In this document: piece by piece, positions 1,127-63,720 of the stretch
Position numbering within the stretch: position 1 is the stretch's first letter
Layout of the letters: each line of letters starts with the position of its first letter
The notes under the pieces: model-generated
Told to the model about the DNA's origin: nothing
The model's input: the letters and a program-made list of their open reading frames with translations, nothing else
Databases searched by the model: none
Virus record (IMG/VR): IMGVR_UViG_2671180676_000004
Coordinates: 1 to 64,000 of that record
From: a virus
Lineage: Duplodnaviria > Heunggongvirae > Uroviricota > Caudoviricetes
Reading direction: 5' to 3' (one strand)
DNA: 64,000 nucleotides
Translations under genes and position numbers: made by a program

Positions 1127-1720
1127 ATGACGACGAAGACACCAGCCCGATCGCAAGAAAAAACTCGCAAAAAAGCCAAAAACAAAAATTCTCCCCGCAC
1201 CAATTCCACAACGCCTGTCGTAGAGTTCAATCCCCAGCTTAAAACCGTGAAAATCTTCAGTGATGGCTCTTGCCTTAAAAATCCGGGTGGCCCGGGCGGT
1301 TACGGTATAGTTCTCCAGTATCGTGGTGAGGAACGCGAGTTCTCAGATGGTTTTCATAGCACCACCAATAACCGCATGGAGATGATGGGGGCACTTATCG
1401 GGCTGGAGCGTTTGAAATATCCATGCAACGTTATTTTGCACTCTGATAGCCAGTATCTGAAAAACGGCATGACACAGTGGATGAAATGGTGGAAACGCAA
1501 TGGATGGGTGACTTCTGACAAAAAACCGGTAAAGAATGTTGATCTGTGGAAGCGTCTGGATGAGGCTGCAAGTCGACATAATGTTCGCTGGAAGTGGGTT
1601 AAAGGTCACGCCGGGCATCGTGAAAATGAAATATGTGATCGACTCGCGAAGATCGCAGCTTTTTCCGCAGCAGATATGCCTCACAAGAAAGATATTGGTT
1701 TTGTTTACAACAAGCAGTAA
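1127..1720 (+). CDS. RNase HI-family ribonuclease with basic N-terminal extension
   Basis: Aligns by eye to E. coli RnhA; catalytic D/E/D/D positions retained ([29 protein letters not shown]); SD CAGGAG before ATG 1127. Confidence 0.85.
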
Positions 1721-1737
1721 GTAAGTGTTTACCTATC
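1718..1737. repeat. Motif B copy (taagtaagtgtttacctatc)
   Basis: Near-identical to the copy at 63701-63720. Confidence 0.5.
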
Positions 1738-1865
1738 ATTTTAAATCATGTATCTTATCGGCGTCAGGATGACAATGTGTCGGTAAGACACAGTTCCAGG
1801 ATGGAACGAGAAAGGCGGCTGGCAATCGCCAGCCGCAACTCTTTCTGACACTGGATGGAGTCCAC

Positions 1866-2360
1866 ATGGCACGTCAAACCTATTTCACTTCTGCAACTAA
1901 ACGTCCTCGTTCACTACGTCAAATTTTGGCCGAATTATTTAGCGGTCGTGTTCTGTCACGTCTTGATGAACTAGAGACTGCCGTTCGGTTGCTGAATGAA
2001 CGTTTAGATAAGCAAGCGTCAGTTGTTGCGAACGTGGGGGCGATTGTTACCTCTGGTTCTTCACGCGAAGCGAAAAGTACACGGCCTTTAGTGAAGGAGA
2101 AAAACAACAAGGACAGTTCGAATGGAAAATTTTCAAAGAAAGAGGCTGAAACCAATGGCCTACGTTCTCATTATAGTTTCACTGGCGACGGTAGCCGTTC
2201 CAGCCGGCCAGAGCCTTTTGATGCCGGGTTCATCCATCACCACACCTCCGTCGACGACAATTACCACCACTCCAGTAGAGCGTCCTGTCACTCTGGATGG
2301 GATGACGGTGGATGCGATACCTCAAGTTCATCCAGTTACTCAGGATCATGCTGTGACTAA
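1866..2360 (+). CDS. Hypothetical protein; C-terminal half may be out of frame
   Basis: N-terminal 85 aa protein-like; C-terminal part low-complexity while overlapping frame 2122..2373 encodes a TM/Thr-Pro-rich segment. Confidence 0.3.
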   Translation: MARQTYFTSATKRPRSLRQILAELFSGRVLSRLDELETAVRLLNERLDKQASVVANVGAIVTSGSSREAKSTRPLVKEKNNKDSSNGKFSKKEAETNGLRSHYSFTGDGSRSSRPEPFDAGFIHHHTSVDDNYHHSSRASCHSGWDDGGCDTSSSSSYSGSCCD

Positions 2361-2369
2361 GGCGGTTGT

Positions 2370-2567
2370 ATGAACTGGTTTTCAAATCACTTTGGAAAAA
2401 CTTGGCTGGCGATTCTGGCTTTCATAGCTCTCATGGCCGCCGGTTGGGTATCGAACATTGTAAAACTCGTTTGCTCTGGTGATCTCCAGTTTCAGGCTGG
2501 TATGACCTTGGCTCGTGTTGTTGGGATTTTTGTTTTTCCAGTCGGTTCGGTACTTGGTTATTTCTGA
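2370..2567 (+). CDS. Small membrane protein (65 aa)
   Basis: Two hydrophobic segments; ATG overlaps end of frame 2122..2373. Confidence 0.4.
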   Translation: MNWFSNHFGKTWLAILAFIALMAAGWVSNIVKLVCSGDLQFQAGMTLARVVGIFVFPVGSVLGYF

Positions 2568-2621
2568 CGGTTGTTAGTGCATATGCATTGACCGTCTTTT
2601 CGTAAGCAATTCATGTAACTA

Positions 2622-2637
2622 GAAAACAACTTGTTTT
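2622..2637 (+). promoter_or_regulatory. Motif A palindrome (gaaaacaacttgtttt)
   Basis: Perfect 7-bp inverted repeat, about 30 nt upstream of ATG 2661. Confidence 0.45.
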
Positions 2638-2660
2638 AACAAATAACAAAAGGAAAGCAC

Positions 2661-3086
2661 ATGTTAGGTTTATTCAAAAAGAAAACTCGTAAAGCTGTTA
2701 TCGAGGTCAAAAAAATGGAGAACCGAGATGCGGTTGAAGCCACCGTGTGGGGCGCGTACATGATCTCCTATGCCGATGGCACATGCGACGCAAAGGAAAT
2801 TTCCATTCTTGAGAAAACAATTGCAGCTCTGCCTGCGTTTTCTCCGTTTGCTGGTGAGATTGCCCAAATGAGCGCCAATATCCGTGCTCAATACGAAGCC
2901 TCACCGCGCCGCGCTAATGCCCAGGCTTTACGTGAGCTGGCTGATGTGGCCGGGACTAATGATGCAGTAGATGTACTGTGTCTGTGCCTTGATATTGCCG
3001 ACCAAGACGGTATTGGCGAACAAGAAGAGCTGGCCCTGAAAAAGATCGCACAGGCGCTTCAGTTGTCACTGGATGCTTATCTCTAA
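2661..3086 (+). CDS. TerB-like domain protein
   Basis: Two repeats of the h-x-ADG … E-E-L pattern (YMISYADGTCDAKEIS / CLDIADQDGIGEQEEL) typical of the TerB fold; SD AAAGGAAAG. Confidence 0.5.
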   Translation: MLGLFKKKTRKAVIEVKKMENRDAVEATVWGAYMISYADGTCDAKEISILEKTIAALPAFSPFAGEIAQMSANIRAQYEASPRRANAQALRELADVAGTNDAVDVLCLCLDIADQDGIGEQEELALKKIAQALQLSLDAYL

Positions 3087-5010: not shown

Positions 5011-5487
5011 ATGAATACAGCCCTTTCCATCATCGACGATGCCAACTCAAACACTGCTATCGACTATCGGCAGGAAATGAACGTCATCCACGAAATTGTG
5101 GCCGAGTGCGAGAAAGAGATCGCCTTCATGTATCAGGTACACGACTTCGTTTATGGCGACGAACGCCACAACATGATTAATCGCCTGCTGAGACTAAACC
5201 ATCGACCAGATGAAGATCGCTCGCGTTTAAATCGAGGTTGGTTGGATAAAGTCGATCTGGAATGGGTGAAACAGAATATTTGGGCCGAGTACTGGAGGAA
5301 GGTCACGGACATGACTAACGTTTTGCTGATCATGCCAGCTTCCCGTCGTGACGAGTGGTATGAGCAATTTATCGAGGGCAAGCAGGAAGTCATCAAAACT
5401 GACAGAACCGGCTATCAGATGAAGGTTAAAGAGTTCGTTGGTGTACCTGAGTTCAAAGTGGATACAGACATCCCTACGATGGCTTGA
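5011..5487 (+). CDS. Hypothetical protein (158 aa)
   Basis: ORF preceded by inverted repeat gcaccattaa…ttaatggtgc at 4974-5008; convergent with hsdR. Confidence 0.5.
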   Translation: MNTALSIIDDANSNTAIDYRQEMNVIHEIVAECEKEIAFMYQVHDFVYGDERHNMINRLLRLNHRPDEDRSRLNRGWLDKVDLEWVKQNIWAEYWRKVTDMTNVLLIMPASRRDEWYEQFIEGKQEVIKTDRTGYQMKVKEFVGVPEFKVDTDIPTMA

Positions 5488-5545
5488 TCTGACAGCTATC
5501 TGCAAATTGCACAGATATCTGCCAGATCTGGTTCAGATTAATACA

Positions 5546-8500
5546 CTATATCTGCCCACCTACTCCTTTGAACTTTTCAATAAACGTGACGATTTTCTGG
5601 AAAACCGTCTGTTTTTTCGTTTTATATTGCGGGTTTAACGGACTAAGTTTTGGTAATGTCTCGTTTAATTCTGTGCCATTTTCGGTGGCGTATTCGCGTT
5701 TTAAAGACGTGCGAATATAGCGTTTCGCCGCCTCTTCATTGAGATTTTCTTCTTTAATCAACGCTTCTGCTTCACGTAGCTGTTCGTGTTGAGCAAAGGT
5801 AAAGAACGCGTCAATGATGCTGGCTTTGTCTGGTAAATCATCCAGGTTCGTTTGCTGAATAAAATCGACCACCAGGCCCTCTTTAGCACGGTTCCCTAGG
5901 CTTGAACGAATTAAGCGTTTGACCTCTTCGATCATTTCGCCCTTGCCTTTATTTTGTCTGTTGTGTTCGAAAATCAGTCCAAGGATATAATCCAGGTTTA
6001 TTTCCTGAGACTTCAGCAAATCGACCTCAAAAACTACGTCATCCCAGTCAGTGGTTGATTTCTCTTTTTTCTCAGCTTCTTTCTCACGGCGCTGCCAGTC
6101 GCGAATATCGTTATAGGCAGAACGATAATCCTGAATCTTGCGATCAGCAGGGAGACGAATTGTTTGCAATTCAGCGAACTTTTCATCATCCACATAATGT
6201 TCTGCTTTGAATTTTTCTACCGCAACAGGATCGCTAAGATCGATTTGTTGCAGGGCTTTTAGCGTGGCAAATTCATCATAGTTTTGCAGGATGTTCTCGG
6301 CACGCAGGTATTCGCCAAACAGTTTAACGAAGTCTTTCTTCTCTTTTTCACTTTCAATACTGGCAGGGTCAGGGAACCGTTGTTCCAGTTCTGAAACTAC
6401 TGCCATAAAGCCGCGTTTAGCTTCACCTGTAGCAGCATCAGTAAAGCCTTCCATATACTCTGCATAACTCTTTTCTAACACTACATTTTTGGTGTTTTTG
6501 TCACCAAACAGCGTTATGGCATCGATGGTTGAGCGTTCCAGATCGCGGAAAGTGACGATATTACCGAAGGTTTTAGTCGCGTCATAAATGCGGTTGGTAC
6601 GGGAAAATGCCTGCATCAGGCCGTGAAAACGCAAGTTTTTATCGACGAATAGCGTGTTTAATGTTGGAGCATCGAAGCCGGTTAAAAACATCCCCACGAC
6701 GATTAACAAGTCAACATCCTGATTTTTAACCCGCTGAGCCAGGTCCCGATAGTAGTTCTGAAAACCCTTGCTATCAGTGCTGAAATTCATTTGAAAATGG
6801 TCGTTATACTCACGAATTGCAGCGTCCAGAAACTCTTTAGCACTGCTGTCCATTGCACTGGTATCAAAAGATTCATCGGATATTTCACCAATGGCATTTT
6901 GTTCTTCATTAGCGGCAAAGGAGAAGATTGTCGCAACACGCAGTGGTTTATAGGTAGCAGATTTATTAGCTGCTTCCTCTTGTAACCGTTTAAACGTCGC
7001 GTAATAGGCTTTCGCGGCATCCACGCTGCTCACTGCCAACATAGCATTAAAACCTTTTGAGCCAGGGAAGGTACGGTGGGTTTTCTGGCGGAAATTATTC
7101 AGAATATATTGCGTGATTTCCTGAATACGCATGGGATGAAGAAACGCCTGCTGATTTTCAGCCGCACTCAGTTTTTTCTCGTCAGTTTCTGTCTCTAAAG
7201 ACTTAAACTGTGGCCGCACATCGTTGTAGTCCACCTTGAATTTGAGCACTTTTTCGTCACGAATCGCATCGGTAATTACATACGAATGCAATTCACGACC
7301 AAATACGCTGGCGGTTGTTTCTGAGCCTAAGGCGTTTTCCGGGAAAATAGGGGTGCCGGTAAAACCAAACTGATAATAACGTTTGAATTTCTTCTTCAGG
7401 TTTTTCTGCGCTTCTCCAAACTGGCTGCGGTGGCATTCATCAAATATAAACACCACTTGCTGATTATATACAGGCAGGTCGCTTTCTGCTTTCATCAGGT
7501 TATTGAGTTTCTGAATAGTAGTGACGATAATTTTGTTATCGTCCTTATCCAGATTTCGTTTAAGGCCTGCGGTATTTTCCGAGCCGTTGACGCTGTCTGG
7601 CGAAAAACGCTGATATTCCTTCATGGTCTGGTAATCGAGGTCTTTCCTGTCGACCACAAAGAAGACTTTATCAATAAAGTCCAGCTCTGTTGCCAGACGC
7701 GCGGCTTTAAAGCTGGTGAGGGTTTTACCAGAACCGGTAGTGTGCCAGATATACCCACCGCTTTCCGGTTTTGACCAGTTCTTCGCTGTAAAGGAACTCT
7801 TAATTTTCCACAGAATGCGCTCGGTGGCGGCAATCTGGTACGGTCGCATCACCAGTAGCGTCTGACTACTGTCAAAAACGCTGTAGTTCACCAGAACATT
7901 CAGCAGAGTATGTTTCTGGAAAAAGGTAGCGGTAAAGTCTTTGAGGTCTTTAATCAGCGTGTTGTCTGATTTCGCCCAATTCATGGTGAAGTCAAAACTG
8001 TTTTTATCGCGCTTTGTGGTGTTGGCAAAATAACGGGTATCAGTGCCGTTGGAAATGACGAACAGCTGCAGATACTTAAACAGGGAATTTTCGCTGTTAA
8101 AACTCTCTTTACTGTAACGATGTATCTGGTTGAAAGCCTCACGAATCGCCACCCCGCGTTTTTTTAGTTCGATTTGCACCAGCGGTAAACCATTAACCAG
8201 GATCGTGACGTCATAACGGTTAGCATGAGAACCCGTCTGTTCAAACTGCTGGATAATCTGCACCTTATTGCGCATGAGATTCTTTTTATCTATCAAATAG
8301 ATGTTCTCAAGTCGCCCGTCGTCAAAAATAAAGTCGCAGATATAGTCGATATGGATTTTACGGGTTTTATCCAGAATACCATCGCTGGGGTTGTCCAGAT
8401 ACTGCTCCGTGAAGCGCCGCCACTCGCTGTCATTAAACATCACACCATTGAGGCTCTGAAGCTGTTCCCGAACATTGGACAGCATTGCCGACTGTGATTT

Positions 8501-8662
8501 TACGGAAATAAATTCATAACCCTGATTCCGCAGGTCCTGAATCAGTTCACGTTCCAGGTCCGATTCGCTCTGGTAGCTGTCGCTTGTTTGCTCAGCTTTG
8601 ATGTACTTATCAAGGACGATAAAGTTATTGGATTCAGCAATGGTGTGTGTTTGATGAGTCAT
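5546..8662 (-). CDS. hsdR: Type I restriction enzyme R subunit
   Basis: 1038 aa; SF2 motifs TGSGKT and DECH ([10 protein letters not shown]); directly downstream of hsdM-hsdS. Confidence 0.9.
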
Positions 8663-8784
8663 AGCGCATCCTTTGTGCCGCCTGGCAAGAGCCGGAAGGG
8701 CGTTAAGAGTGACTTCCGGCGCGTAAAAAAATAGTCTATATACTGACCGGGTGTTAAGGTGGCCCGATCGGTAGCAATGGTCAA

Positions 8785-10023
8785 TTAATTACTGACAGTT
8801 TCAGGTTTCGGGAAACTGAACAGTAAATCACGGTAGTATTCGTATTGTTTCTGGCGCAACTCGATTTCACGCGGGAGACCTTCGGTGATGGAGTTGGTCA
8901 GGGTGTCGAATTTATCGAGCAGAGCAGATATTCGCTCTTGTTTCTGTTTATCAGGCAATGGCACTGGTAATGTTTTTATAATATCTGCATTCAAGTTACT
9001 GACCGACCCGCTATTGATTTTACTTTCCCAATAATTTTTCACCTTTTTTGATGAAAGATAGTGATACAGATAATCAGCATTTAATTTTTCACCAAAATTG
9101 CTGATTGATGCCCATCCATCATGGATAGCTCCGGTTATCCTTAAAATATATGGTCTGCCAAAGCTCATAGAGTTAGAAATGACGAAATCACCGGGGTTCA
9201 AGATTCGCGATTTTTGGGCACCCTCTGCAGTTATTTTTTGTAAGGTTTTGTCAATGTATTTAGAGCCGGGGATAGTATCTCCGATTTTAATCCATGGGAT
9301 ACCATTTCCTTGTTCAGTAAGATAATTAACAATTGGCCTGGGGGATGCCCCACGTTGTATTTTGGCTACTTCTCCCAATGCCTTCCACTCAACCTCACCC
9401 TCTTTAAAACTCAGCAACTGGTCGCGATAGTAGTTGTACTGTTTTTTACGCATGTTAAGCTCAGCGGTAAGCTCAGCGGTAAGTGCAGTAAACTTATCCA
9501 GAATCCGAACAATTTCAGACTGGATGGCAAGGGATTTTCCCGGGGCGCTGGGACAAGGGATGGGTATTTGATAGTTTAAAATTGCATCTTTACTGCCTCG
9601 AGGCATCTTTGCCCCTTTAGCGTGCTGCATACTGTAAGAAAAAAATGAATCCGACGATAATGCATAGTAGAGATATTCTGGACTAATAATTTTTTTACAG
9701 TCTGCTAAAATGCGTATAGCAAGGACATCACCACTGCACCCGCCATTATTCTCCGCCATCCAAACTTTCTTTAAATATGGGCGAATATTACCTAAAAGAA
9801 TATCACCTGGCTCATAGGCAGTTAAACGTGCCGTATTAGGCTGATAGGTGGCGTCAATGCGACCGCCTTTATCAGCAAGGAGATTATCAACGCCAACGAA
9901 TGAAGTGGCATCAAGTTTATCAGCATCAACTTTGGTTGTTGAATACCCGGCGATATCGCCCACTGCTTTCCACTCAACCTCAACCCCATCCAGCAATTTT
10001 TCCAGATAACTCAACTCGCTCAT
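8785..10023 (-). CDS. hsdS: Type I restriction-modification specificity subunit
   Basis: 412 aa with two target-recognition halves, each ending in a conserved coiled spacer (…[16 protein letters not shown] / …[16 protein letters not shown]); overlaps hsdM by 4 nt. Confidence 0.85.
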
Positions 10024-11582
10024 TTCTGCACCTCGCAGCCTTCAATTTCAGCCACAATCGCATCAATATCTTTACGCAACTGGTCGATTTTGCTGACCGT
10101 GGTTTTCAGCTCTGCATTCAACTCAGCGATATCGATAATTTCGCGAGTATCTTTCACTTCAACATAGCTGCTCACCGACAGGTTATAGTCATTAGCAACA
10201 ACAGTCTCAAACGCAACAGATTTCGCCAGATGAGCAACATCTTCCTTGCTGGCAAATACCTGCATAATTTTTTCTATATGGGCATCGGTCAGAATGTTGT
10301 TGTTAGTCTCTTTTTTGAACAGTTCGCTGGCATCAATAAACTGAACTTTGGTATCCGTTTTATGTTTAGACAGCACCAGAATATTGACGGCAATGGTGGT
10401 GCCAAAGAACAGGTTCGGTGCCAGTGAAATCACGGTTTCGACATAGTTATTGTCAACCAGATACTGACGGATTTTCTGCTCCGCGCCGCCACGGTAAAAA
10501 ATGCCCGGGAAGCAGACAATCGCAGCACGACCTTTGGCAGAAAGATAGTTCAGCGCATGTAATACAAACGCAAAGTCAGCTTTGGATTTGGGGGCCAGAA
10601 CGCCAGCCGGGGCAAAACGTTCATCGTTAATCAGCGTCGGGTCATCGCTGCCAATCCATTTCACCGAATACGGCGGGTTAGAAACGATGGCATCAAACGG
10701 TTTTTCATCTCTGAAGTGCGGCTCAGTCAGCGTATTGCCCAGCTTGATATCAAACTTGTCGTAGTTGATGTTGTGCAAAAACATGTTCATACGCGCCAGG
10801 TTATAGGTCGTATGGTTGATCTCCTGACCGAAAAAGCCTTCTTCGATGATGTGGTCATCGAACTGCTTTTTCGCCTGCAACAACAGCGAACCGGAACCTG
10901 CTGCCGGGTCGTAGATTTTGTTAACGTGGGTCTGGCCGTGCATTGCCAATTGTGCAATCAGCTTAGAGACGTGCTGCGGTGTAAAGAACTCGCCGCCTGA
11001 CTTACCAGCATTCGCGGCATAGTTAGAAATCAGGAACTCATAGGCATCGCCGAACAGGTCAATCTGATGTTCGTTGAAGTCACCAAGTTTTAACCCTTCA
11101 ACCCCTTTCAGAACCGCAGCCAGGCGGGCATTTTTATCTTTAACGGTGTTACCCAGGCGGTTACTGGTGGTATCGAAATCAGCAAACAAACCTTTGATGT
11201 CAGCTTCTGAAGGATAACCGTAAGCAGAACTTTCGATAGCAACGAAGATGCTGTTTAAATCTGCGTTCAGTCTGTCATTGGTATTTGCTTTCGCCGCTAC
11301 GTTGCAGAAAAGCTGACTGGGGTAGATGAAGTAGCCTTTAGTTTTGATGGCATCGTCTTTAATGTCATCAGTAATTACGCTGTCATCCAGTTTCGCATAA
11401 CAGATACTGTCATCACCGGCTTCAATATAGCTGGAAAAATTTTCGCTGATAAAACGGTAGAAAAGTGCGCCCAGAACGTATTGCTTAAAATCCCATCCAT
11501 CGACCGAACCCCTGACATCGTTAGCAATTTGCCAGATTTGACGATGAAGCTCTGCACGTTGTTGAATACTTGTCATTTTCAT
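10020..11582 (-). CDS. hsdM: Type I N6-adenine DNA methyltransferase subunit
   Basis: 520 aa; SAM motif [10 protein letters not shown] and catalytic NPPYS. Confidence 0.9.
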
Positions 11583-11706
11583 CCACTTATTTCAGGCTTA
11601 TGTAATTGGCGGTGATTCTACAGCAACTTGGATGCTTTAGCAGTTCGGACATTAGGCAACGAATGACCTAATTAGAGCTTTTTGGAAAAGCGGTATTGTC
11701 GGTGCG

Positions 11707-11931
11707 ATGATAGCTATGTTTGGGTGCGCGATGGTGCAATACAATGACGGTGAAAAGGTAAGCATCCAGTCTGATGGCTGGTATGGGCTGGATAGCCTGC
11801 AAAAAACCGCAGATAAAGCCTGTCAGCAATATGGAAAGTCTAAAGCCGTATATCAGCATAGCGCGAACGCTAATCCACATCTCGCGCCCGGCACGGGCGT
11901 TCAGAACACTATTTGGAAATGCGAACCATAA
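11707..11931 (+). CDS. Hypothetical small protein (74 aa)
   Basis: ORF only; no clear SD. Confidence 0.25.
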   Translation: MIAMFGCAMVQYNDGEKVSIQSDGWYGLDSLQKTADKACQQYGKSKAVYQHSANANPHLAPGTGVQNTIWKCEP

Positions 11932-12114
11932 CGCAGGTTGGCTTTTTACATCTTGGGCCGAATACTGATTCCGCGCTAAGTTGTTTGTGCGGAAGTGACA
12001 CTGTGGAGCTTAGAAATAGTAAATACTGGTGGGCAACAAATTGAGCCTTCACACGCTCACCAGCACACACAAAAAATGGTTAAACAGCAAGGGAATTAAT
12101 ATCTCATCGCGACA

Positions 12115-12252
12115 TTAAATAAGCCAGCGCACGCCTCTGTTTATCACTGACTTGAAAAACCATATCAGAACCACGATGAAGACAATCGCCAGCACTTGGC
12201 TAAGAACAGGCGCATTTAAAAATGCACTTAGAAACTGAAAAAATACAATCAT
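12115..12252 (-). CDS. Small hydrophobic peptide (45 aa), type I toxin-like
   Basis: Not in ORF track; minus-strand ATG at 12252-12250 with SD GAGGA; product MIVFFQFLSAFLNAPVLSQVLAIVFIVVLIWFFKSVINRGVRWLI. Confidence 0.35.
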   Translation of the reverse strand: MIVFFQFLSAFLNAPVLSQVLAIVFIVVLIWFFKSVINRGVRWLI

Positions 12253-12708
12253 CAGGGTAATCCTCGTCTAATGTAAAGCTGTGTGCTCTCACGTTGACGT
12301 AGAAACCCAACCTCTATATAGTTGGATTCGGTGAAAGAAAGTCGTTAACGTGAACTTACGGCACATGTTTTCGGTATAAAAATCAGGGAACTGTGAATTC
12401 CTTGATGTAGTTGGGGCCTGTAATGCAGGCCCTATCTATTAATGTCATGATTACATCTCAAATTTTCTCCTTATCATTATTATTTAATAAAATTCAATTA
12501 ATATAATATCCATTTCCTGTGTGTGCAAACACAGTATGAGGAAAATGGCCCCGTTGCAAGTGCATAACTTTGTGGATAACTCTGAAGGCGAATTTACATT
12601 TCGGCGCACCGCAAGCCAGATAAGCTGTGCGCAAAAAGCAATGGGGTGAGAAAAAAACTTTGAAGATATTGCGGCGACTAAATAATAGCCGTTATTCAAT
12701 TATTCTGG

Positions 12709-12972
12709 ATGGGATTTAATATGAACGAATGGAACATAGCAGCCAAAAGCCAGGAAGAAAGGAATAAAGTTAACGTTGACCTGGCTGCCAGGGGGGTTGC
12801 CTACAAAGAGCGATTGAACATACCCGTCATAGCGGAACAGGTAGCCCGTGAGCAACCTGAGAACCTGCGCACCTATTTCATGGAACGGCTACGGCACTAC
12901 CGGCAGTTAAGCCTCCTGCTGCCAAAAGGAAACGATCCGGTATATCAGAAAGAAGATATAGCCAAAAAATAA
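12709..12972 (+). CDS. Hypothetical protein (83-87 aa)
   Basis: ORF; alternative ATG at 12721; immediately upstream of the UmuD'-like gene. Confidence 0.4.
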
Positions 12973-13070
12973 CGCGCCACCAGGCGAGCGCAAAGCATCG
13001 CGCTATTGCACACTTCAAGCATCTTTAATGTATACTGTATGGATAAACAGTACTCTGAGGTGAAAACGCT

Positions 13071-13460
13071 ATGGGCTTCCCTTCTCCTGCGGCGGATTAT
13101 GCTGAGAGTCGTATTTCTCTTGATCAGCAGATAATTAGACATCCTTCAGCGACCTACTTCTTGAGGGCAGCTGATAGTCATCATCGTGAGGGAATATTAC
13201 AGGGTGCATTGCTGGTGGTCGATTCCTCACTTACCCCGGTTGATGGTTCTCTGCTTGTATGCGCTCTGGATGGGGAATATCGCGTAAAAAGATACCGGAA
13301 GTATCCACGTCAGCATCTGGAGGATTTGAGAACCGGTAAGAAGGAAGCATTGCCAAAGGATGACGATGGATGCACGGGCAGCAATGCCGTGTTTGGTGTG
13401 ATCACTCACATTATCAACGACGCAAGAAGTGGCGAGTTTGATGATTGTCCCGTGATGTAG
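13071..13460 (+). CDS. UmuD'-like S24-peptidase domain protein
   Basis: Begins MGFPSPAADY…HPSATYF, matching UmuD from its Cys-Gly autocleavage site onward; Ser and Lys positions kept (ADSH…VKRY); no umuC partner. Confidence 0.6.
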   Translation: MGFPSPAADYAESRISLDQQIIRHPSATYFLRAADSHHREGILQGALLVVDSSLTPVDGSLLVCALDGEYRVKRYRKYPRQHLEDLRTGKKEALPKDDDGCTGSNAVFGVITHIINDARSGEFDDCPVM

Positions 13461-13496: not shown

Positions 13497-14597
13497 TCAC
13501 ACTGCGCGGAATGCGATCTCGCCAGGTATTACTTCGCCTTGCCAATACATTTGGGCAGCAACGCGATCTGCGAGGTCACGATAAATAGCCGTAAATTCGC
13601 TATCTGGACGACTAATAACGGTTGGTGTTCCGTTATCCAGATCTTCACGAAGAGAGATATGAAGTGGCATTTGGCCTAACAACTGCGTGTTGTATTTCTC
13701 GGCCAGTTTCTGTGCGCCACCGGTGCCAAAAATTGGCTCGTGATGACCGCAGTTACTGCAAATATGCACACTCATGTTTTCGACGATACCCAGTACCGGC
13801 ACTTCGACTTTTTCGAACATCACAATGCCTTTCTTCGCATCGATCAGCGCGATGTCTTGCGGCGTAGTTACCACAACCGCACCAGTTACAGGAATGTTCT
13901 GCGCCAGCGTCAACTGAATATCACCAGTGCCCGGCGGCATATCGAGAACGAGATAGTCCAGATCAGGCCATAGAGTTTCCTGCAACATCTGCATCAGCGC
14001 CTTGCTGGCCATCGGTCCACGCCACACCATTGCATTGTCGTCGGTGACCAGATAACCAATAGAGTTGGTTGCCAGGCCATGAGACATGATAGGTGCCATG
14101 TGAGTACCGTCCGGTGAGGTTGGACGTTGGTTTTCCGCGCCCAGCATGGTTGGAATTGATGGACCATAGATATCGGCATCCAAAATACCAACTTTCGCAC
14201 CTTCAGCAGCCAACGCCAGTGCCAGGTTTACCGCCGTGGAGGATTTACCCACGCCGCCCTTGCCTGAGCTGACGGCGATAATGTTCTTAACGCCATTAAT
14301 GCCTGGTTGGTTTTTGACGCGCTTAAGCGTGGCAATGTTGTACGACAGCTTCCAGTCAATAGCCTTTGCGCCAGTGATACGGAGCAGATCACCACTACAT
14401 TGCTCTTTCAGGTCTTCAAAAGGCTTATTCCACACGAAAGGCATGATTAGTTCGACATGCAGTGTGTCATCCATCAACGCAACATGGTGTAACGCTTTAA
14501 GCGTAGTCAGGTTGTGTTTCAGGGTTGGGTGCTGAAAATTAGCCAGCGTACCGGCTACCATTGCTCTCAGGGCATCCGGCGATTTGGACTCGCTCAT
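13497..14597 (-). CDS. apbC: Fe-S cluster carrier ATPase Mrp/ApbC
   Basis: 366 aa; P-loop SSGKGGVGKSST; MinD/Mrp family; divergent from metG as in E. coli. Confidence 0.95.
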   Translation of the reverse strand: MSESKSPDALRAMVAGTLANFQHPTLKHNLTTLKALHHVALMDDTLHVELIMPFVWNKPFEDLKEQCSGDLLRITGAKAIDWKLSYNIATLKRVKNQPGINGVKNIIAVSSGKGGVGKSSTAVNLALALAAEGAKVGILDADIYGPSIPTMLGAENQRPTSPDGTHMAPIMSHGLATNSIGYLVTDDNAMVWRGPMASKALMQMLQETLWPDLDYLVLDMPPGTGDIQLTLAQNIPVTGAVVVTTPQDIALIDAKKGIVMFEKVEVPVLGIVENMSVHICSNCGHHEPIFGTGGAQKLAEKYNTQLLGQMPLHISLREDLDNGTPTVISRPDSEFTAIYRDLADRVAAQMYWQGEVIPGEIAFRAV

Positions 14598-14754
14598 CCC
14601 GTCTCCTTTATTTTAATTTGCGCAATTGTCGCCTTGTAGTGTACTCCAGCTACGACATTTAATCATTTATGAGAAATGCTGTTATCACATGGCAGACATA
14701 AGGCCATTTTGTTACTATCAAGCCCCTTTTCACTACAAAGAAGTAATGCCTACT

Positions 14755-16788
14755 ATGACCCAAGTCGCGAAGAAAATTCTGGTGACGTGCGCGCTGCCGT
14801 ACGCTAACGGCTCAATCCACCTCGGCCATATGCTGGAGCACATCCAGGCTGATGTCTGGGTTCGTTACCAGCGAATGCGCGGCCACGAGGTTAATTTCAT
14901 CTGTGCCGACGATGCCCACGGTACGCCGATCATGCTGAAAGCACAGCAGCTTGGTATCACACCGGAGCAGATGATTGGCGAAATGAGTCAGGAACACCAG
15001 ACTGATTTCGCAGGCTTTAACATCAGCTATGACAACTATCACTCGACGCACAGCGAAGAGAACCGTCAGTTGTCTGAGCTTATCTATACTCGCCTGAAAG
15101 AGAACGGTTTTATTAAAAACCGCACTATCTCTCAGTTGTACGACCCGGAAAAAGGCATGTTCCTGCCGGATCGTTTTGTAAAAGGCACCTGCCCGAAATG
15201 TAAAGCGCCAGATCAATACGGCGATAACTGTGAAGTCTGCGGCGCAACATATAGCCCGACTGAATTGATCGAGCCGAAATCGGTGGTTTCTGGCGCTACC
15301 CCGGTAATGCGTGATTCCGAACACTTCTTCTTTGATCTACCTTCTTTCAGCGAAATGTTGCAGGCATGGACCCGCAGCGGCGCGTTGCAGGAGCAGGTGG
15401 CGAACAAAATGCAGGAATGGTTTGAATCCGGCCTGCAACAGTGGGATATATCCCGCGATGCGCCTTACTTCGGTTTTGAAATTCCGAACGCGCCGGGCAA
15501 ATATTTCTACGTCTGGCTGGACGCGCCGATTGGCTACATGGGTTCCTTCAAGAATCTGTGCGACAAGCGCGGCGATACCACCAGCTTCGATGAATACTGG
15601 AAGAAAGACTCCACCGCCGAGCTGTACCACTTCATCGGTAAAGATATTGTTTACTTCCACAGCCTGTTCTGGCCTGCCATGCTGGAAGGCAGCAACTTCC
15701 GCAAGCCGACCAACCTGTTTGTTCATGGCTATGTGACGGTGAACGGCGCGAAGATGTCCAAGTCTCGCGGCACCTTTATTAAAGCCAGCACCTGGCTGAA
15801 TCATTTTGACGCTGACAGCCTGCGTTACTACTACACTGCGAAACTCTCTTCGCGTATTGATGATATCGATCTCAACCTGGAGGATTTCGTTCAGCGTGTG
15901 AATGCCGATATCGTTAACAAAGTGGTTAACCTGGCGTCCCGTAACGCTGGCTTTATCAATAAGCGTTTTGACGGTGTGCTGGCAGGCGAACTGGCTGACC
16001 CGCAACTGTATAAAACCTTCACTGATGCTGCTGAAGTGATTGGTGAAGCATGGGAAAGCCGCGAATTTGGTAAAGCTATCCGTGAAATCATGGCATTGGC
16101 TGACCTGGCTAACCGCTATGTCGATGAACAGGCTCCGTGGGTGGTGGCGAAGCAGGAAGGACGCGATGCCGATCTGCAGGCGATTTGCTCTATGGGCATT
16201 AACCTGTTCCGCGTGCTGATGACGTACCTGAAGCCGGTACTGCCGAAACTGACTGAACGTGCAGAAGCATTCCTGAATACAGAACTGACCTGGGATGGTA
16301 TCCAGCAACCGCTGCTGGGCCATAAAGTGAATCCGTTCAAGGCACTGTATAACCGCATCGATATGAAGCAGGTTGAAGCACTGGTGGAAGCATCCAAAGA
16401 AGAAGTGAAAGCCACAGCCGCACCGGTAACTGGCCCACTGGCTGACGACCCGATTCAGGAAACTATCACCTTTGACGACTTCGCCAAAGTTGACCTGCGC
16501 GTGGCGCTGATTGAAAACGCAGAGTTTGTAGAAGGTTCTGACAAACTGCTTCGCCTGACGCTGGATCTCGGTGGTGAAAAGCGTAATGTCTTCTCAGGCA
16601 TCCGTTCCGCTTATCCAGATCCACAGGCACTGATTGGTCGTCACACCATTATGGTGGCTAACCTGGCACCACGTAAAATGCGCTTCGGTATCTCTGAAGG
16701 CATGGTGATGGCTGCTGGCCCCGGCGGGAAAGATATCTTCCTGTTAAGCCCGGATGCTGGTGCTAAACCTGGCCACCAGGTTAAGTAA
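14755..16788 (+). CDS. metG: Methionyl-tRNA synthetase
   Basis: 677 aa from [11 protein letters not shown]; class I HIGH (HLGH) and KMSKS motifs; zinc knuckle CPKC…CEVCG; C-terminal tRNA-binding domain. Confidence 0.97.
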
Positions 16789-20612: not shown

Positions 20613-20618
20613 GTATTG

Positions 20619-20634
20619 TAAGTACATACTTACG
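20619..20634. repeat. Motif B palindrome (gtaagtacatacttac)
   Basis: 7-bp arms GTAAGTA/TACTTAC upstream of gene 20677. Confidence 0.5.
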
Positions 20635-24761: not shown

Positions 24762-25286
24762 TCAAAAAGGCAAAATTCGTTCAACCCAATCGAACAAAAC
24801 AACTATTTTTCTACCGTTCTCGACACGTAGTGTAACCTGACAAGCATCTGCGCCTGCTGACACCCCCTCAATTTCACGGCCATCCGCCATGTACACCCTT
24901 ATAGATTTGTTTGCTTTGTAGGCTTGGTTGCAAATTGCAAAAAAATCGCGGCGTGATGGCCGATTATCGACATAATCAGGGTGAACTGTTAGTCGACCTT
25001 TGAAATCGTGAGCGATACTGTCAACCACACCTGATTCAATTGTACTAATGCGTTCAAGTGGGAGCCTTATACGATTTTCTTTGTCAAAAGGGGCTGGGCA
25101 AAGGTCAACTTTGTTACGAGATGGCATGAGGCCATAAACGTACATGCAAAACGCCTGGCCATCTTCGAGAGTGACCCTTACAGGAATTTGTTCTCTGCGC
25201 CAGAACATCAGTAGTTTTTCAACGTTAGTGTAATCTCGCGGCCAGAGTTCAGCTTGGATACCGTAGGTAATATCTTTGGTTGTCAT
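24762..25286 (-). CDS. Hypothetical protein (174 aa)
   Basis: Start set at MTTKD to avoid overlap with the upstream lipoprotein gene. Confidence 0.45.
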   Translation of the reverse strand: MTTKDITYGIQAELWPRDYTNVEKLLMFWRREQIPVRVTLEDGQAFCMYVYGLMPSRNKVDLCPAPFDKENRIRLPLERISTIESGVVDSIAHDFKGRLTVHPDYVDNRPSRRDFFAICNQAYKANKSIRVYMADGREIEGVSAGADACQVTLRVENGRKIVVLFDWVERILPF

Positions 25287-25290
25287 GTCA

Positions 25291-25713
25291 TCACAGAGTT
25301 GTTGGCAGAATGTCGATGTCACCAGAATTGCTGGTGAACACCCTGAACGCTTTTGTGTCTCCATTCTTCAGAGTCGTTTCTCGCTCTTGACGAGCGGGGT
25401 TTAGAGCACATAAACCTGCACCTTCAAGAGATGCACCCACAATTAATTCTCCGGCATTTAAATGGAAAGTCGCTTTTTCGCCTGTAGCCAGTTTTGCGAC
25501 AGTTTCGCCGTTGATGAAAATGGAAGCATCACATCCAGCTCCTACAAAACCTGTGTCTCTCATTACCACCAACGTAGCTGGCGCTGCGCTTTGATACTTG
25601 AACACTTTGGCCTGCGGTGCTGGTTTGGCGTCATGGATTGATATTGGGCGTGATTGGCACGCGGTAAGCATCAACACTGGTAACGTTAGTAGAGGGAGAA
25701 GCGAGTATTTCAT
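25291..25713 (-). CDS. Putative lipoprotein (140 aa)
   Basis: Signal peptide with lipobox MKYSLLPLLTLPVLMLTAC. Confidence 0.5.
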   Translation of the reverse strand: MKYSLLPLLTLPVLMLTACQSRPISIHDAKPAPQAKVFKYQSAAPATLVVMRDTGFVGAGCDASIFINGETVAKLATGEKATFHLNAGELIVGASLEGAGLCALNPARQERETTLKNGDTKAFRVFTSNSGDIDILPTTL

Positions 25714-27622: not shown

Positions 27623-27668
27623 AAACCTCTTTCCTTAGTGCCTTTTGTATGTTATTTGGCTATTATAA

Positions 27669-27687
27669 TAAGTAAGTGATTACTTAG
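27669..27687. repeat. Motif B copy (taagtaagtgattacttag)
   Basis: In the divergent region between the helicase and ParB-like operons. Confidence 0.5.
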
Positions 27688-36374: not shown

Positions 36375-36384
36375 TCAGTGTAGT

Positions 36385-36400: not shown

Positions 36401-36407
36401 ATGTTAA

Positions 36408-36436
36408 AGGGTGGGCTATACGCCCACCCTTTTTGT
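36408..36436 (+). terminator. Intrinsic terminator after the major capsid gene
   Basis: agggtgggc-tatac-gcccaccct + TTTTGT. Confidence 0.85.
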
Positions 36437-39953: not shown

Positions 39954-39960
39954 CTCAATT

Positions 39961-39978
39961 GGTAAGTATATACTTACT
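39961..39978. repeat. Motif B perfect palindrome (ggtaagtatatacttact)
   Basis: GTAAGTATATACTTAC is a perfect 16-bp palindrome; upstream of the major tail gene. Confidence 0.5.
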
Positions 39979-40027: not shown

Positions 40028-40774
40028 ATGTCTAATACCCATGTAAAAAACATCAAACTTGGTGCCTGTAAGGTGTCGTTTGGTGGTGTGGATTTGGGTT
40101 ACACCAAAGGTGGTGTTCAGGTTGAAGTAGCCACTGAAACGCTGAAAGTCACCGTCGATCAGTTGGGGCAGACCGTAATTTCCGAATTAGTTCAGGGGCG
40201 CAACATTACCATCACCGCGCCTCTGGCTGAGTCTGTACTCCAAAACATGGTTGACCTGATGCCTGGTTCTACTCTGAGCGAAGATGACAACTCTGTCACG
40301 ATCACATCTGCACAGGGCGTTAACCTGATTGATGTGGCGAAGGAGCTGGTTCTGACTCCGCAGGACACCACCGACTATGTGTTGACCATCCCGAAAGCGG
40401 CAACCGCGGGCAACTTCACTATGACCTACCAGTCTGATGATGTTCGTGTGTTCTCTGTTCAGTTCAGCGCATACCCGGATGATGAAGGCGTTCTGGGCAA
40501 AATGAGCGGTCCTAAACCGGTAAAAACTGTGTCGATCTCACCGGAATCTCCAACCGTAAAAGCTGGAGAAACTGTGCAACTGACAGCCGAAATCACTCCA
40601 GCTGATGCCGCAGACAAAACCGGTGTTTGGGAATCCGAAGACCAGGAAAAGGCCACGGTAGATCAAACGGGTCTTGTGCGCGGTGTGGCGCAGGGTACTG
40701 CAAACATCTCCTTCACCAGCAATAGCGGTTCTAAGAAGGCTACTAAGTCAGTAACGATTAACTCCGCAGATTAA
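40028..40774 (+). CDS. Major tail protein with C-terminal Ig-like domain
   Basis: ATG 40028 with SD AAGGAG; C-terminus resembles the 36448 repeats (…AEITPADAADKTGVWESEDQEKATVDQTGLVRGV…). Confidence 0.65.
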   Translation: MSNTHVKNIKLGACKVSFGGVDLGYTKGGVQVEVATETLKVTVDQLGQTVISELVQGRNITITAPLAESVLQNMVDLMPGSTLSEDDNSVTITSAQGVNLIDVAKELVLTPQDTTDYVLTIPKAATAGNFTMTYQSDDVRVFSVQFSAYPDDEGVLGKMSGPKPVKTVSISPESPTVKAGETVQLTAEITPADAADKTGVWESEDQEKATVDQTGLVRGVAQGTANISFTSNSGSKKATKSVTINSAD

Positions 40775-40829
40775 TCAGTAATTAAGCAGAGGCTCAGGAT
40801 GAGCCTCTCTTTTAAAAGGATTTTAACCA

Positions 40830-46460: not shown

Positions 46461-46479
46461 GGATAAGTAAGTACTAATC
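46461..46479. repeat. Motif B-like copy (ggataagtaagtactaatc)
   Basis: M/L junction. Confidence 0.35.
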
Positions 46480-46536
46480 TACTATCATTGTGGCGCTGAC
46501 AGGATGTTAGCGCCTACTTATTTCAAGGATGAAACA

Positions 46537-53351: not shown

Positions 53352-53391
53352 TGGTGGAAAAAAAATTTTATATCGGTAAAAATAGGTAAGT

Positions 53392-53410
53392 ATTTACTTA
53401 ATGGCGGACA
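53392..53410. repeat. Motif B copy (ataggtaagtatttactta)
   Basis: J/tail fibre junction. Confidence 0.5.
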
Positions 53411-57854: not shown

Positions 57855-57874
57855 ATAGGTAAGTATATACCTAT
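57855..57874. repeat. Motif B palindrome (ataggtaagtatatacctat)
   Basis: 7-bp arms ATAGGTA/TACCTAT; tail fibre/lysis junction. Confidence 0.5.
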
Positions 57875-61538: not shown

Positions 61539-61563
61539 GAGGTGCTGCTTGGCACCTCTTTCT
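61539..61563 (+). terminator. Intrinsic terminator
   Basis: gaggtgc-tgcttg-gcacctc + TTTCT. Confidence 0.7.
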
Positions 61564-61575
61564 ATAGGTTCCCTA

Positions 61576-62295
61576 ATGCTCTACAAATATATTGGAAGTG
61601 AAGATTCGCAAAAAGTGTTACGTAACCTCAAACGGTTTGTAGAGGACGGCACTATCTCTGCTAGCGCACCTTCTTCATTCAACGACCCATCAGAGTTCAA
61701 AGTTTCGATAACGATGGGAGGTACAGAAGTGGAGCGCCGGAAACACTTTGAAGACAATGGATGTAAGGATTTTTCCTTTGAAGACTGGGATGCTGTAGCT
61801 CCTGAAGCTGCAAAATCGTTGGCTGTGGATTTGCGGAAAGAATCATTAGGGGCTTTTGGTGTGGTGTGCTTGTCACCAAACGAAGATAACATCTTGATGT
61901 GGTCACATTACTCAGTGTCGCATAAAGGTTTCTGCATAGGCTTTGATGATGATTTTGTTACCTCTATTGAGGGGTATCACAGCTTTGATAATGTGAAATA
62001 TATACCTTCTGTTCCCGTGTTCGATGAAGTTACAGATGAGTTTAAGGTACTTTTTGATAAGCTCTTTTTCTACAAGCACGAATGCTGGAAATATGAGGAA
62101 GAACAAAGGGTTATTACTAAAAAAATAGGCGCTCAGGCATTTGATAAGAAATATATTAGAGAGATCATTCTTGGACATAACGTTTCTCCTGAAGTAGAAG
62201 AATATGCCCGGACACAGCTAGACACGAGCATCGAGGTTTACAAAATGAGTACACCTGATGATGGTTATCTTCTTGTCAAAGAAAAGCTGAAGTAG
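61576..62295 (+). CDS. DUF2971-like protein
   Basis: Starts MLYKY…; motifs SFNDPSEF and MWSHYS as I recall for DUF2971. Confidence 0.5.
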   Translation: MLYKYIGSEDSQKVLRNLKRFVEDGTISASAPSSFNDPSEFKVSITMGGTEVERRKHFEDNGCKDFSFEDWDAVAPEAAKSLAVDLRKESLGAFGVVCLSPNEDNILMWSHYSVSHKGFCIGFDDDFVTSIEGYHSFDNVKYIPSVPVFDEVTDEFKVLFDKLFFYKHECWKYEEEQRVITKKIGAQAFDKKYIREIILGHNVSPEVEEYARTQLDTSIEVYKMSTPDDGYLLVKEKLK

Positions 62296-62361
62296 CTCCA
62301 GACTTTCCTCAAATGATTATGTTGGGCGCTTTTCTTATTGAACTGGTTAGTGAGGCTAATA

Positions 62362-63534
62362 ATGGATTTGTTCTCAACCAAAATAGCAAAAAACAAGCTG
62401 CACGAATCTTTTAAACAGATTTATCAAGATAATACATATGCTCCAGTAAGAGAAGTGATACAGTCGTGGGGGCGTGGGTTACTGGAGCGTAGCGGTGAGC
62501 AGACTAAATTCGTTAAAGAGTTTCAGACAACCTTCAATTCCGCCTTATGGGAATTGTATCTGAACGAAATGTTTATTCGTCTCGATTATTCTGTCGACTA
62601 CACAAAAGACAGTCCCGATTTCTGTGTTACTACACCGTCAGGCTACCAGTTTAACGTCGAAGCTGTGATATCAGATCGGCCACATAATCCACCTGCAGGT
62701 GCTCTTTTTAGCGAATTAAAATTCAAACATCAATCAACGCTAAAATTAATCGGAAAAATCAAAGACAAACATGATCTTTTTACAGGAGTTAATGGCAAAA
62801 AATTCCCGTACTCTACGATGTCTCATGTAGTTAATAAGCCGTTTGTTCTGGCGCTTGCACCCTTTGACTCCGATTTATCATTGTCTCAAAATAACACAAT
62901 CATCAATCGAGTGTTGTTTGGCATTGAGGAACCTACCACCAGAAATTTGGTGACTGGCAGCCAAACTAAAGTTACCTCAATCAAAAAGAATGAAGACGTT
63001 GAAATTCCATTAGGTATATTTACTAACGACTCATATAAAGAAATAAGTGCGGTTATTTTCTCCACCACCGGCACTTTTGGAAAAGCCGTGGTTCAAAGCG
63101 GTATCGGTAGATATGTAAGGTCAACACGATATCGAGCCATTGATGTGAATGATTTCATCGCCAATGAAGGGATGAAAAACGAGGGAAAGCACACACAAAG
63201 GATAGGACCTGATCATTTCATCACTACATATCGGCATTTTTTAAATAACGAAGTCACTGGTGCGGATATTGTAGTTTGTCATTCCACTGCTCATGAAGAG
63301 ACGCACTTTGACGGCCTTCATATTTACTACAATCCTTTTGCGACAGTGCCACTGGACAGAAATATTTTCTTCCCCCCAGAGATAACTCATAATTTTTACG
63401 ATATGGAAAAAGAACAGTCTGTTCAGAATCATCCTGATGGAGCGCTGGTATCTAGACAGGTTTTTGAACCAACTAGAGCACATTTTAGGTATATCATGAA
63501 ACATTGGTTTCCAGGCTTTCTAAAAGATGTTTAA
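62362..63534 (+). CDS. Hypothetical protein (about 390 aa)
   Basis: ATG 62362 with SD GAGG; track start 62338 is TTG; followed by hairpin H3. Confidence 0.5.
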   Translation: MDLFSTKIAKNKLHESFKQIYQDNTYAPVREVIQSWGRGLLERSGEQTKFVKEFQTTFNSALWELYLNEMFIRLDYSVDYTKDSPDFCVTTPSGYQFNVEAVISDRPHNPPAGALFSELKFKHQSTLKLIGKIKDKHDLFTGVNGKKFPYSTMSHVVNKPFVLALAPFDSDLSLSQNNTIINRVLFGIEEPTTRNLVTGSQTKVTSIKKNEDVEIPLGIFTNDSYKEISAVIFSTTGTFGKAVVQSGIGRYVRSTRYRAIDVNDFIANEGMKNEGKHTQRIGPDHFITTYRHFLNNEVTGADIVVCHSTAHEETHFDGLHIYYNPFATVPLDRNIFFPPEITHNFYDMEKEQSVQNHPDGALVSRQVFEPTRAHFRYIMKHWFPGFLKDV

Positions 63535-63556
63535 GCATCCTGCTGGTTGAATTTGG

Positions 63557-63619
63557 AACCTGCTTCTGTATATAAATACTAAGTTACTTATTATTATTTA
63601 TACGGAAGCAGGTCTTTTT
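63557..63619 (+). terminator. Hairpin H copy 3, intrinsic terminator
   Basis: acctgcttctgtatataaata … tatttatacggaagcaggt, same T·G wobble, then TTTTT. Confidence 0.6.
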
Positions 63620-63700
63620 CTATGCCAACTTCCCAGACACATTCCCTTCCGTTTCCACTTCCAAAAACTGCCACCAGTCGCTATCATCCGCTCATTGCAA

Positions 63701-63720
63701 TAAGTAAGTAACTACCTATC
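63701..63720. repeat. Motif B copy (taagtaagtaactacctatc)
   Basis: Near-identical to the copy at 1718-1737; just upstream of the last partial gene. Confidence 0.5.

Follow-up and report, generated by a model that had tools for sequence, protein, structure and literature searches.

A 20-bp palindrome dispersed over SSU5-type phage-plasmids as a candidate operator of an element-encoded regulator

The DNA analysed here (the window) is a stretch of 64,000 nucleotides, positions 1 to 64,000 of the IMG/VR record IMGVR_UViG_2671180676_000004, and belongs to a phage-plasmid of the SSU5/pHCM2/pMT1 type. Its bases 31000–53000 are 98.5% identical to Escherichia phage Cyrano and ca. 81% identical to Salmonella phage SSU5. 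Cyrano is the plasmid pLF82 of E. coli LF82, with a complete genome of 108 kb, and the window is collinear with its positions 77,956–108,379 followed by 1–31,596, except where a few cargo segments have been replaced. Phage-plasmids of the SSU5 type are frequent in clinical Enterobacterales and able to carry resistance and defence cargo, and their lysis-lysogeny control is essentially uncharacterised. The subject of this report is a palindrome repeated along the window, which is almost certainly a protein-binding regulatory site, real, conserved and co-evolving with the element. No description of it was found in the searchable literature; dispersed operators of a phage master regulator are in themselves a kind already known.

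A sequence-only reading of the window had listed ten copies of the palindrome. All ten are present, and their alignment shows the true unit to be a 20-bp imperfect palindrome with the half-sites ATAGGTAAGT and ACTTACCTAT, to which the coordinates have been brought into register; the position 53392 of that list proved to be the right half of a copy at 53382–53401. A position weight matrix (PWM) built from the ten copies and scanned over the window returned the same ten and an eleventh strong copy missed before, at 34467–34486, with a clear drop to the next-best scores. The first copy, GTAAGTAAGTGTTTACCTAT at 1717–1736 (no strand is assigned to any copy), overlaps the stop codon of an RNase H-like gene (open reading frame, ORF, 1040–1720) and lies upstream of ORF 1866–2360; its PWM score is 25.0, or 22.4 when left out of the matrix, and its orthologues in SSU5 and in the Klebsiella phage-plasmid pJN2-26 score 28.0 each. 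A variant copy, TATTGTAAGTACATACTTAC at 20614–20633 (PWM 17.4), is immediately preceded by a terminator hairpin (GCCCCGCC..GGGGCTTTTTT). The left half of the copy supplies a -35-like TTGTAA, and TAGAAT follows 17 nt further on; both the variant and the layout TTGTAA-17-TA(G/A)(A/T)AT are kept in SSU5 and pJN2-26. The copy ATAAGTAAGTGATTACTTAG at 27668–27687 lies where the helicase operon (minus strand) and the ParB-like/terminase operon (plus strand) diverge, and adjoins a perfect TATAAT on the minus strand; it is consistently among the weaker ones (13.8 in SSU5, 18.7 in pJN2-26).

The late region holds most of the remaining copies. ATAGGTAAGTAATTATCTAA at 32960–32979 overlaps the TerL stop codon, with the portal start 10 nt further on. 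The eleventh copy, ATAAGTCAGTACTTACTTAT, lies within the 3' end of the portal gene, 100 nt upstream of a gene whose expression goes up under the partial induction described below; it occupies the spacer of TTGAAA-N17-TATGAT (10/12 in the promoter scan), and neither the site (20/20) nor the hexamers differ in SSU5 and pJN2-26. GTAGATAAGTAGTTATCTAT at 36383–36402 is placed between the stop of the major capsid gene and an intrinsic terminator (ca. 36406–36433); its orthologues score 25.1 and 27.8, and expression falls by 3 log2 units across the junction. ATTGGTAAGTATATACTTAC at 39958–39977 precedes the major tail gene, and its centre gives TATACT, the -10 of a conserved TTGAAT-N18-TATACT; the perfect 16-bp palindrome reported earlier, GTAAGTATATACTTAC, is found there at 39962–39977. 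Between the tail genes M and L, ATAAGTAAGTACTAATCTAC at 46463–46482 is overlapped by TGGATA-N17-TATCAT and followed by a GC-rich hairpin at 46492–46514. ATAGGTAAGTATTTACTTAA at 53382–53401 separates the J-like tail tip gene from the tail fibre gene and is present in SSU5; the fibre region differs in pJN2-26. ATAGGTAAGTATATACCTAT at 57855–57874, between the fibre and holin genes, abuts TATAAT, and a conserved TGATATAAA lies 20 nt downstream. The last copy, ATAAGTAAGTAACTACCTAT at 63700–63719, stands 84 nt after a terminator, and the ATG of the first gene of the replication module follows it at a distance of 12 nt; upstream is TTCCAA-17-TATCAT, conserved as TTCCAA-17-TAT(C/G)AT. The 20-mers starting at 1718 and 63701, at the two ends of the series, which were described before as nearly identical, have 17 of 20 bases in common. 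The terminator, at 63558–63616, is a long-stem intrinsic one (AACCTGCTTCTGTATA...TACGGAAGCAGGTCTTTTT) with a degenerate copy of the palindrome in its AT-rich loop, and the same long-stem structure is found at Cyrano 31156–31215. The Cyrano annotation bears out the junctions that had been named (TerL/portal, before the major tail gene, M/L, J/fibre and fibre/holin). The statement that the palindrome marks almost every module junction holds loosely, and mainly in the late region: strong copies in Cyrano occupy 18 of its 79 intergenic gaps of at least 20 nt.

The degenerate consensus TARGTAAGTNNNTAYYTA, with up to two mismatches, has 24 matches in the window, compared with 0.49 ± 0.73 (maximum 3) in 100 dinucleotide shuffles. 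Owing to this ca. 50-fold enrichment, the palindrome cannot be regarded as a common AT-rich word, which was one part of the outcome that the sequence-only reading had named as its refutation. In Cyrano, where coding sequence makes up 87% of the genome, 18 of the 19 strong copies lie between genes (P = 2e-15). Leave-one-out scores of eight copies in the window range from 19.5 to 25.8; since the best score in locally shuffled windows averages 13–15 and reaches at most 17.5–20.6, a few of the eight still fall inside the upper range of chance. The copies at 20614 (leave-one-out 10.6) and 36383 (16.6) are not above chance individually, yet SSU5 and pJN2-26 each have both of them at the orthologous position. 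Weak, degenerate motif-like copies at 160–183 and 541–560 (PWM 13–16) flank a small gene, the Cyrano counterpart of which, CYRAN_81, is expressed in the lysogen. A separate 13-bp palindrome, ATAAGTAACTTAT at ca. 30918–30944, upstream of the small terminase gene, resembles the two outer half-arms of the motif without its centre. By a rough estimate, single matches in other viral contigs are consistent with chance; a possible case outside the SSU5 group, in the viral contig L011, turned out to be an unrelated AT-rich repeat and was rejected.

The copies differ from each other at 3–6 positions and keep the palindromic consensus positions, the spacing of the arms never changes, and three flanking bases on each side are mirror-symmetric (A-W-R ... 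Y-W-T), which extends the footprint to ca. 26 bp. The half-sites show no compensatory covariation: 65 copies give 463 complementary (Watson-Crick) pairs, where 470 ± 6.6 are expected from the column frequencies, and the most variable pair, positions 4/17, is complementary in 29 copies, with 28.5 expected. Arms that vary independently, at a fixed spacing and within symmetric flanks, point to the site of a dimeric DNA-binding protein and not to a structured RNA or a cruciform, and the hairpin or cruciform reading was rejected on the grounds that the arms do not covary. An RNA-level element, that is, a transcribed hairpin that serves RNase processing, stabilisation or antitermination, would agree with a palindrome that can fold into a 7–8-bp hairpin, with several copies lying inside polycistronic units and with a GC-rich stem-loop following four or five of them. 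It is nevertheless highly improbable: besides the lack of covariation and the rigid spacing, the hairpins are weak (-4 to -8 kcal/mol, z-scores -1.5 to -3), no bias of orientation is seen, and no Rfam family reaches the gathering threshold in the window. Hairpins downstream accompany 5 of 19 sites, compared with 21.5% in other intergenic DNA, so that there is no excess and the idea of the site plus a downstream hairpin as a special unit was likewise rejected. The RNase processing and antitermination signals put forward in the sequence-only reading are thus disfavoured. Recombination linkers that promote mosaic exchange, suggested by copies at module borders in a mosaic element family, are the least probable explanation of all, because the mosaic breakpoints that separate the window from Cyrano fall elsewhere than at sites and the copies vary yet keep the palindromic consensus; the trivial variant of this explanation, a common AT-rich word, conflicts with the enrichment over shuffles.

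The full 108-kb genome of Cyrano carries 19 strong copies and ca. 12 weaker ones, spread over the late region and the regions of replication, recombination and nucleotide metabolism; methylase genes are preceded by copies too. As genes of the early region are also preceded by it, the palindrome is not late-specific. Strong copies number 26 in SSU5, 21 in 100 kb of pJN2-26 and seven in a 40-kb piece of the Y. pestis plasmid pMT1, and they are placed at orthologous junctions. The 11 sites of the window recur at orthologous places in SSU5 (11/11) and pJN2-26 (10/11), with a site identity of 84% against 72% for the 40-nt flanks, which include coding sequence. The syntenic phage-plasmid p107 of Acinetobacter baumannii (NZ_CP035046), whose proteins are ca. 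28–48% identical to those of Cyrano, lacks the enterobacterial motif and has instead ca. 30 copies of a related palindrome with the half-sites ATCAGTCAGT and ACTGACTGAT, placed, among others, at TerL/portal, after the capsid gene, before the ParB-like operon and before holin; the enterobacterial form ATAGGTAAGTACTTACCTAT corresponds to ATCAGTCAGTACTGACTGAT in Acinetobacter. A third lineage (IMG/VR UViG_2713896750_000003; proteins 26–57% identical) has yet another palindrome, with the half-sites TTAAGTAAGT and ACTTACTTAA. Position and symmetry are thus kept while the letters drift between lineages, which implies that the binder would be encoded by the element itself rather than being a universal host protein. 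The three co-evolving variants of the motif make up a natural specificity series for that binder.

Promoter-like sequences were scored by consensus (out of 12, in 100-nt windows), a score that the TA-rich motif itself inflates. Scores around the 19 Cyrano sites average 8.1, as opposed to 6.8 in 34 site-less gaps between co-directional genes (P = 1.7e-4), and values of at least 9 occur seven times around the sites and never in the site-less gaps. Several predicted promoters are conserved in all three enterobacterial genomes, with the site at different offsets. Relative to the predicted promoters listed above, the site centre lies at -27.5 for the 20614 copy, -22.5 at M/L (46463), -19.5 for the portal-internal copy (34467), -13.5 before the major tail gene (39958) and ca. 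+15 for the 63700 copy. Such a range suits repressors better than a single activator geometry. The late-gene activator site proposed in the sequence-only reading agrees with the evidence as far as binding of a transcription factor is concerned; its restriction to late genes does not, in view of the copies before replication, recombination, nucleotide-metabolism and ParB-like genes, and the fixed position of an activator is hard to reconcile with conserved hexamers at varying offsets and with several decent -35 boxes, as far as consensus predictions go.

The activator alternative merits separate consideration. It supposes that in phage-specific promoters the palindrome stands in for the -35, and that RNA polymerase is brought in by an early-lytic, element-encoded activator similar to Lpa of phage P1, the candidate being an 88-aa MarR-like winged-helix protein (30612–30878, plus strand) encoded just upstream of the small terminase gene, as lpa is upstream of pacA. 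The fold of this protein is predicted with confidence: its AlphaFold2 (AF2) model has a predicted local distance difference test (pLDDT) score of 82 and the topology H-H-H-wing-H, and Foldseek aligns it with MepR/MarR/ZitR at template modelling (TM) scores of 0.7–0.76. Conservation of the protein extends to SSU5 and pJN2-26 and, in weak form, to Acinetobacter. Its gene is silent in the lysogen, and the induction of this gene does not depend on that of the upstream neighbour. A good -35 is lacking at many sites. TAnnnT begins at position 18 of the motif in 37 of 64 copies, so that the centre of the repeat would come to lie at -19.5; the resulting arrangement, the core AAGTACTT, 3 nt and TAnnnT, recalls the P1 late promoters and keeps an Lpa-like activator model alive. 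The same TAnnnT at position 18 occurs in the direction of the gene in 6/6 copies of the third lineage, the downstream arm is relaxed towards TA in Acinetobacter, and genes following sites rise most under partial induction. Against these points, TAnnnT is found on the mirror side in 34/64 copies, so that the -10 look possibly belongs to the protein site; good -35 boxes are found in the best conserved promoters, where the offset of the site differs from one to the next; and sites also precede early genes and the operon of the candidate itself. Some start codons, 2–13 nt away, are too near for a start 7 nt after position 23, though a Shine-Dalgarno sequence is present. No homologue of Lpa emerged from tblastn against the window, Cyrano, SSU5, pJN2-26 and Acinetobacter p107 (E > 1), or from a hidden Markov model (HMM) of 11 Lpa homologues run against 5558 ORFs (best E 0.24); ten candidate regulators scanned against Pfam gave no match to the Lpa family PF25716, and hhalign of the winged-helix family with Lpa gave a probability of 0.15%. 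We consider the activator box unlikely, if a serious competitor.

Expression of the genes concerned can be followed at the gene level in published RNA sequencing (RNA-seq) of E. coli LF82, the Cyrano lysogen (PMC9928086, S1 table). Each of the genes directly downstream of strong sites is at most at 2.2 times the background in the lysogen, and the genes expressed there (toxin-antitoxin pairs, the parA operon, repA and XRE) have no strong sites (PMC9928086). Partial induction is represented by the macrophage 6-h samples of the same study, in which some lytic genes rise. Compared with the upstream gene, the major tail gene is then up by 2.5 log2 units, among the largest rises of late genes, CYRAN_56 by 3.6 and CYRAN_60 by 3.7, and the largest jumps come right after sites; expression falls where a terminator hairpin follows the site, as after the capsid gene and after M (PMC9928086). 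Gene-level changes across sites thus go both up and down, and the sign of regulation is not settled by them. A 64-fold drop from the parA operon to the next gene was considered as the effect of a site acting as a roadblock; this was rejected, as an ordinary long-stem intrinsic terminator lies between the two.

The same data bear on the possibility that the sites load or bind two proteins with a ParB N-terminal domain (27705–29053) and serve partition, DNA compaction or long-range silencing, in the manner of the KorB/OB sites of RK2 or the dispersed centromeres of N15. Palindromes dispersed over a plasmid-phage, the retention of both ParB_N proteins even in Acinetobacter and the presence of one site in front of their operon would agree with it. 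Both proteins, however, match only the N-terminal domain of ParB, with no recognised DNA-binding helix-turn-helix, and are silent in the plasmid state (5.0 and 9.5, with a background of 9.8), the expressed partition genes being those of the separate parA operon. Moreover, 20–30 sites placed exactly at gene starts are atypical for centromeres. This role is very unlikely.

We favour, with a probability of about 0.5, the reading that the palindromes are operators of an element-encoded dimeric transcription factor, most likely a repressor holding the lytic programme silent during the plasmid phase of the element's life. Copies would lie on or just downstream of sigma-70-type promoters heading the lytic blocks (replication, nucleotide metabolism, packaging, head, tail, fibre and lysis), where the protein, once bound, would keep RNA polymerase from binding or from escaping the promoter and could also halt read-through from upstream units; its loss would free all the units together. 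That the overlapping hexamers are promoters, that the effect is repression rather than activation, and which protein is responsible, are matters of inference. Regulator candidates common to the enterobacterial and Acinetobacter elements are an XRE-family protein, the two ParB_N proteins, the small protein encoded before the small terminase, and the small terminase. The best candidate for the binder would be the XRE-family helix-turn-helix gene adjoining the integrase (CYRAN_45 in Cyrano), located outside the window. This gene is expressed in the LF82 lysogen; a weak copy of the palindrome, GGTAAGTGCTTACC, overlaps its putative promoter in Cyrano, pJN2-26 and pMT1, and three variant copies cluster beside the XRE gene in Acinetobacter. 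XRE homologues are found in 865 plasmids. In Acinetobacter p107, two direct repeats, TTAACNGTTTATATAAA, at 14068–14120 separate the XRE gene from the first early gene and may represent a second type of operator in the immunity region.

SSU5 lacks the integrase and XRE module owing to a deletion at its position ca. 42,640. The junction is present in 0/822 plasmid relatives and the flank is 98–99% identical to Enterobacter plasmids, which indicates that the deletion is recent. For this reason the lack of XRE in SSU5, considered as an argument against XRE as the binder, was dismissed. Loss of the module probably explains the lytic behaviour reported for SSU5.

Several observations weigh against the favoured reading. 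XRE proteins are only 56–69% identical among lineages with an identical motif, with some of the changes in the presumed recognition helix. The helicase operon starting at the 27668 site is expressed in the lysogen, with the ParB-like gene silent, and XRE transcripts rise alongside the site-controlled genes in macrophages (PMC9928086). All the promoters are consensus predictions, with scores inflated by the TA-rich motif; many sites have no convincing -35 and share the TAnnnT layout that recalls P1, and several stand within the short distance from start codons mentioned above, or between a stop codon and a terminator, where a role in a promoter is not obvious. A more speculative proposal, which we hold to be rather doubtful, is that the palindrome forms the core of a dedicated promoter class read by the MarR-like factor of 30612–30878, unrelated to Lpa, or else that the copies are Gram-negative "stoperators" blocking elongation as well as initiation. 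If the former is true, one 88-aa protein would switch on ca. 25 units, early and late, across SSU5/pHCM2/pMT1-type phage-plasmids, and the box variants of Enterobacterales, Acinetobacter and the third lineage would be orthogonal factor-and-box pairs. The weaker candidate for the binder is a 92-aa protein (phrog_1466; 25782–26060, minus strand) encoded in the helicase operon that starts at the 27668 site, and expressed in the lysogen. It has no meaningful match in Pfam or the Protein Data Bank (PDB), and a ribbon-helix-helix (RHH) fold was not upheld for it, the beta-alpha-alpha pattern being our own impression and the AF2 model too poor to decide (pLDDT 53).

Some genes outside the regulatory question deserve mention. 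A complete type I restriction-modification system at 5546–11582 (minus strand) consists of hsdR (1038 aa), hsdS (412 aa) and hsdM (520 aa), with PADLOC E values of 0, 4.5e-138 and 1e-117, respectively. It is contained in a segment, 5485–13031, that has no counterpart in Cyrano, and hence is swapped-in defence cargo. A homologue of the anti-phage defence protein PD-T7-5 (62338–63534, plus strand; 398 aa, E = 4.5e-139), also absent from Cyrano, has been inserted between the parA operon and the long-stem terminator that precedes the 63700 site. A UmuD-like S24 peptidase that has no DNA-binding domain (13071–13460, plus strand) is at ca. 15 times the background in the LF82 lysogen; the adjoining genes at 13497–14597 (minus strand) and 14626–16788 (plus strand) match Cyrano genes annotated as coding for a MinD-like ATPase and a methionyl-tRNA synthetase. 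At 24762–25364 (minus strand) lies a gene for a FljA-like "repressor of phase-1 flagellin" (Pfam PF03614, E = 2.5e-84), which Cyrano, SSU5 and pJN2-26 have kept and the Acinetobacter element lacks; with it the phage-plasmid may modulate host flagellin. Outside the window, CYRAN_43 (Cyrano 40268–40822), adjoining the tRNA cluster and the integrase, reaches ca. 720 times the background in lysogen RNA-seq, a signal that may come from a highly expressed small RNA instead of the annotated ORF.

A single conserved operator at 20–30 places offers a direct handle on the regulon and defines its probable transcription units. It indicates which protein–DNA pair to test and makes the lysis-lysogeny circuit of a clinically widespread family testable; the linked XRE gene is present in more than 800 PLSDB plasmids, the Y. 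pestis pMT plasmids included.

Dispersed sites of this kind have several known counterparts. In mycobacteriophage L5 and other phages of Cluster A, ca. 20–30 sites of the immunity repressor, the stoperators, lie in short intergenic spaces of early and late operons and silence the prophage; they are asymmetric 13-bp sites, oriented with transcription, and block elongation. The sites described here resemble them in number and placement (tens of sites in short intergenic spaces over the whole genome) and differ in being symmetric in arms and flanks, with an unrelated host and protein family. The OB operators of KorB in RK2 and the dispersed centromeres of N15 are plasmid-wide palindromes that tie global gene control to a plasmid-encoded DNA-binding protein. 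The likeness here extends to palindromes dispersed over a plasmid genome; the ParB-like proteins of the present element have the N-terminal domain only and are not expressed in the plasmid state.

Phage P1 provides two further comparisons. In its Lpa-dependent late promoters, 4 nt separate a 9-bp inverted repeat, AAGTGACTT, from the -10 (P1 annotation). The short repeat of such promoters is centred near -22, and there is no -35. Both systems would have in common an inverted repeat with the core AAGT..ACTT, located just upstream of a -10 and in place of a -35, and a small gene upstream of the terminase genes as a possible factor. Here, by contrast, the repeat is 20 bp long, its core is one base shorter and one base nearer the -10, early genes have sites as well as late ones, and their offsets from the best predicted promoters vary. 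The operators of the P1 repressor C1 are likewise sites of one regulator scattered over a plasmid-prophage of ca. 100 kb, where they overlap sigma-70 promoters of many operons (P1 annotation), with weaker or multiple copies at the gene of the repressor itself. In the element described here, the dispersion and the silent downstream genes are observed, and the promoter overlap comes from predictions. P1 operators are 17 bp long and asymmetric, unlike the 20-bp palindrome, whose copies also precede structural and lysis genes that in P1 depend on Lpa; no homologue of C1 was found by tblastn (E > 7). As dispersed, promoter-overlapping sites that silence a plasmid-prophage, the C1 operators are nonetheless a closer functional analogue of the palindrome than the Lpa promoters.

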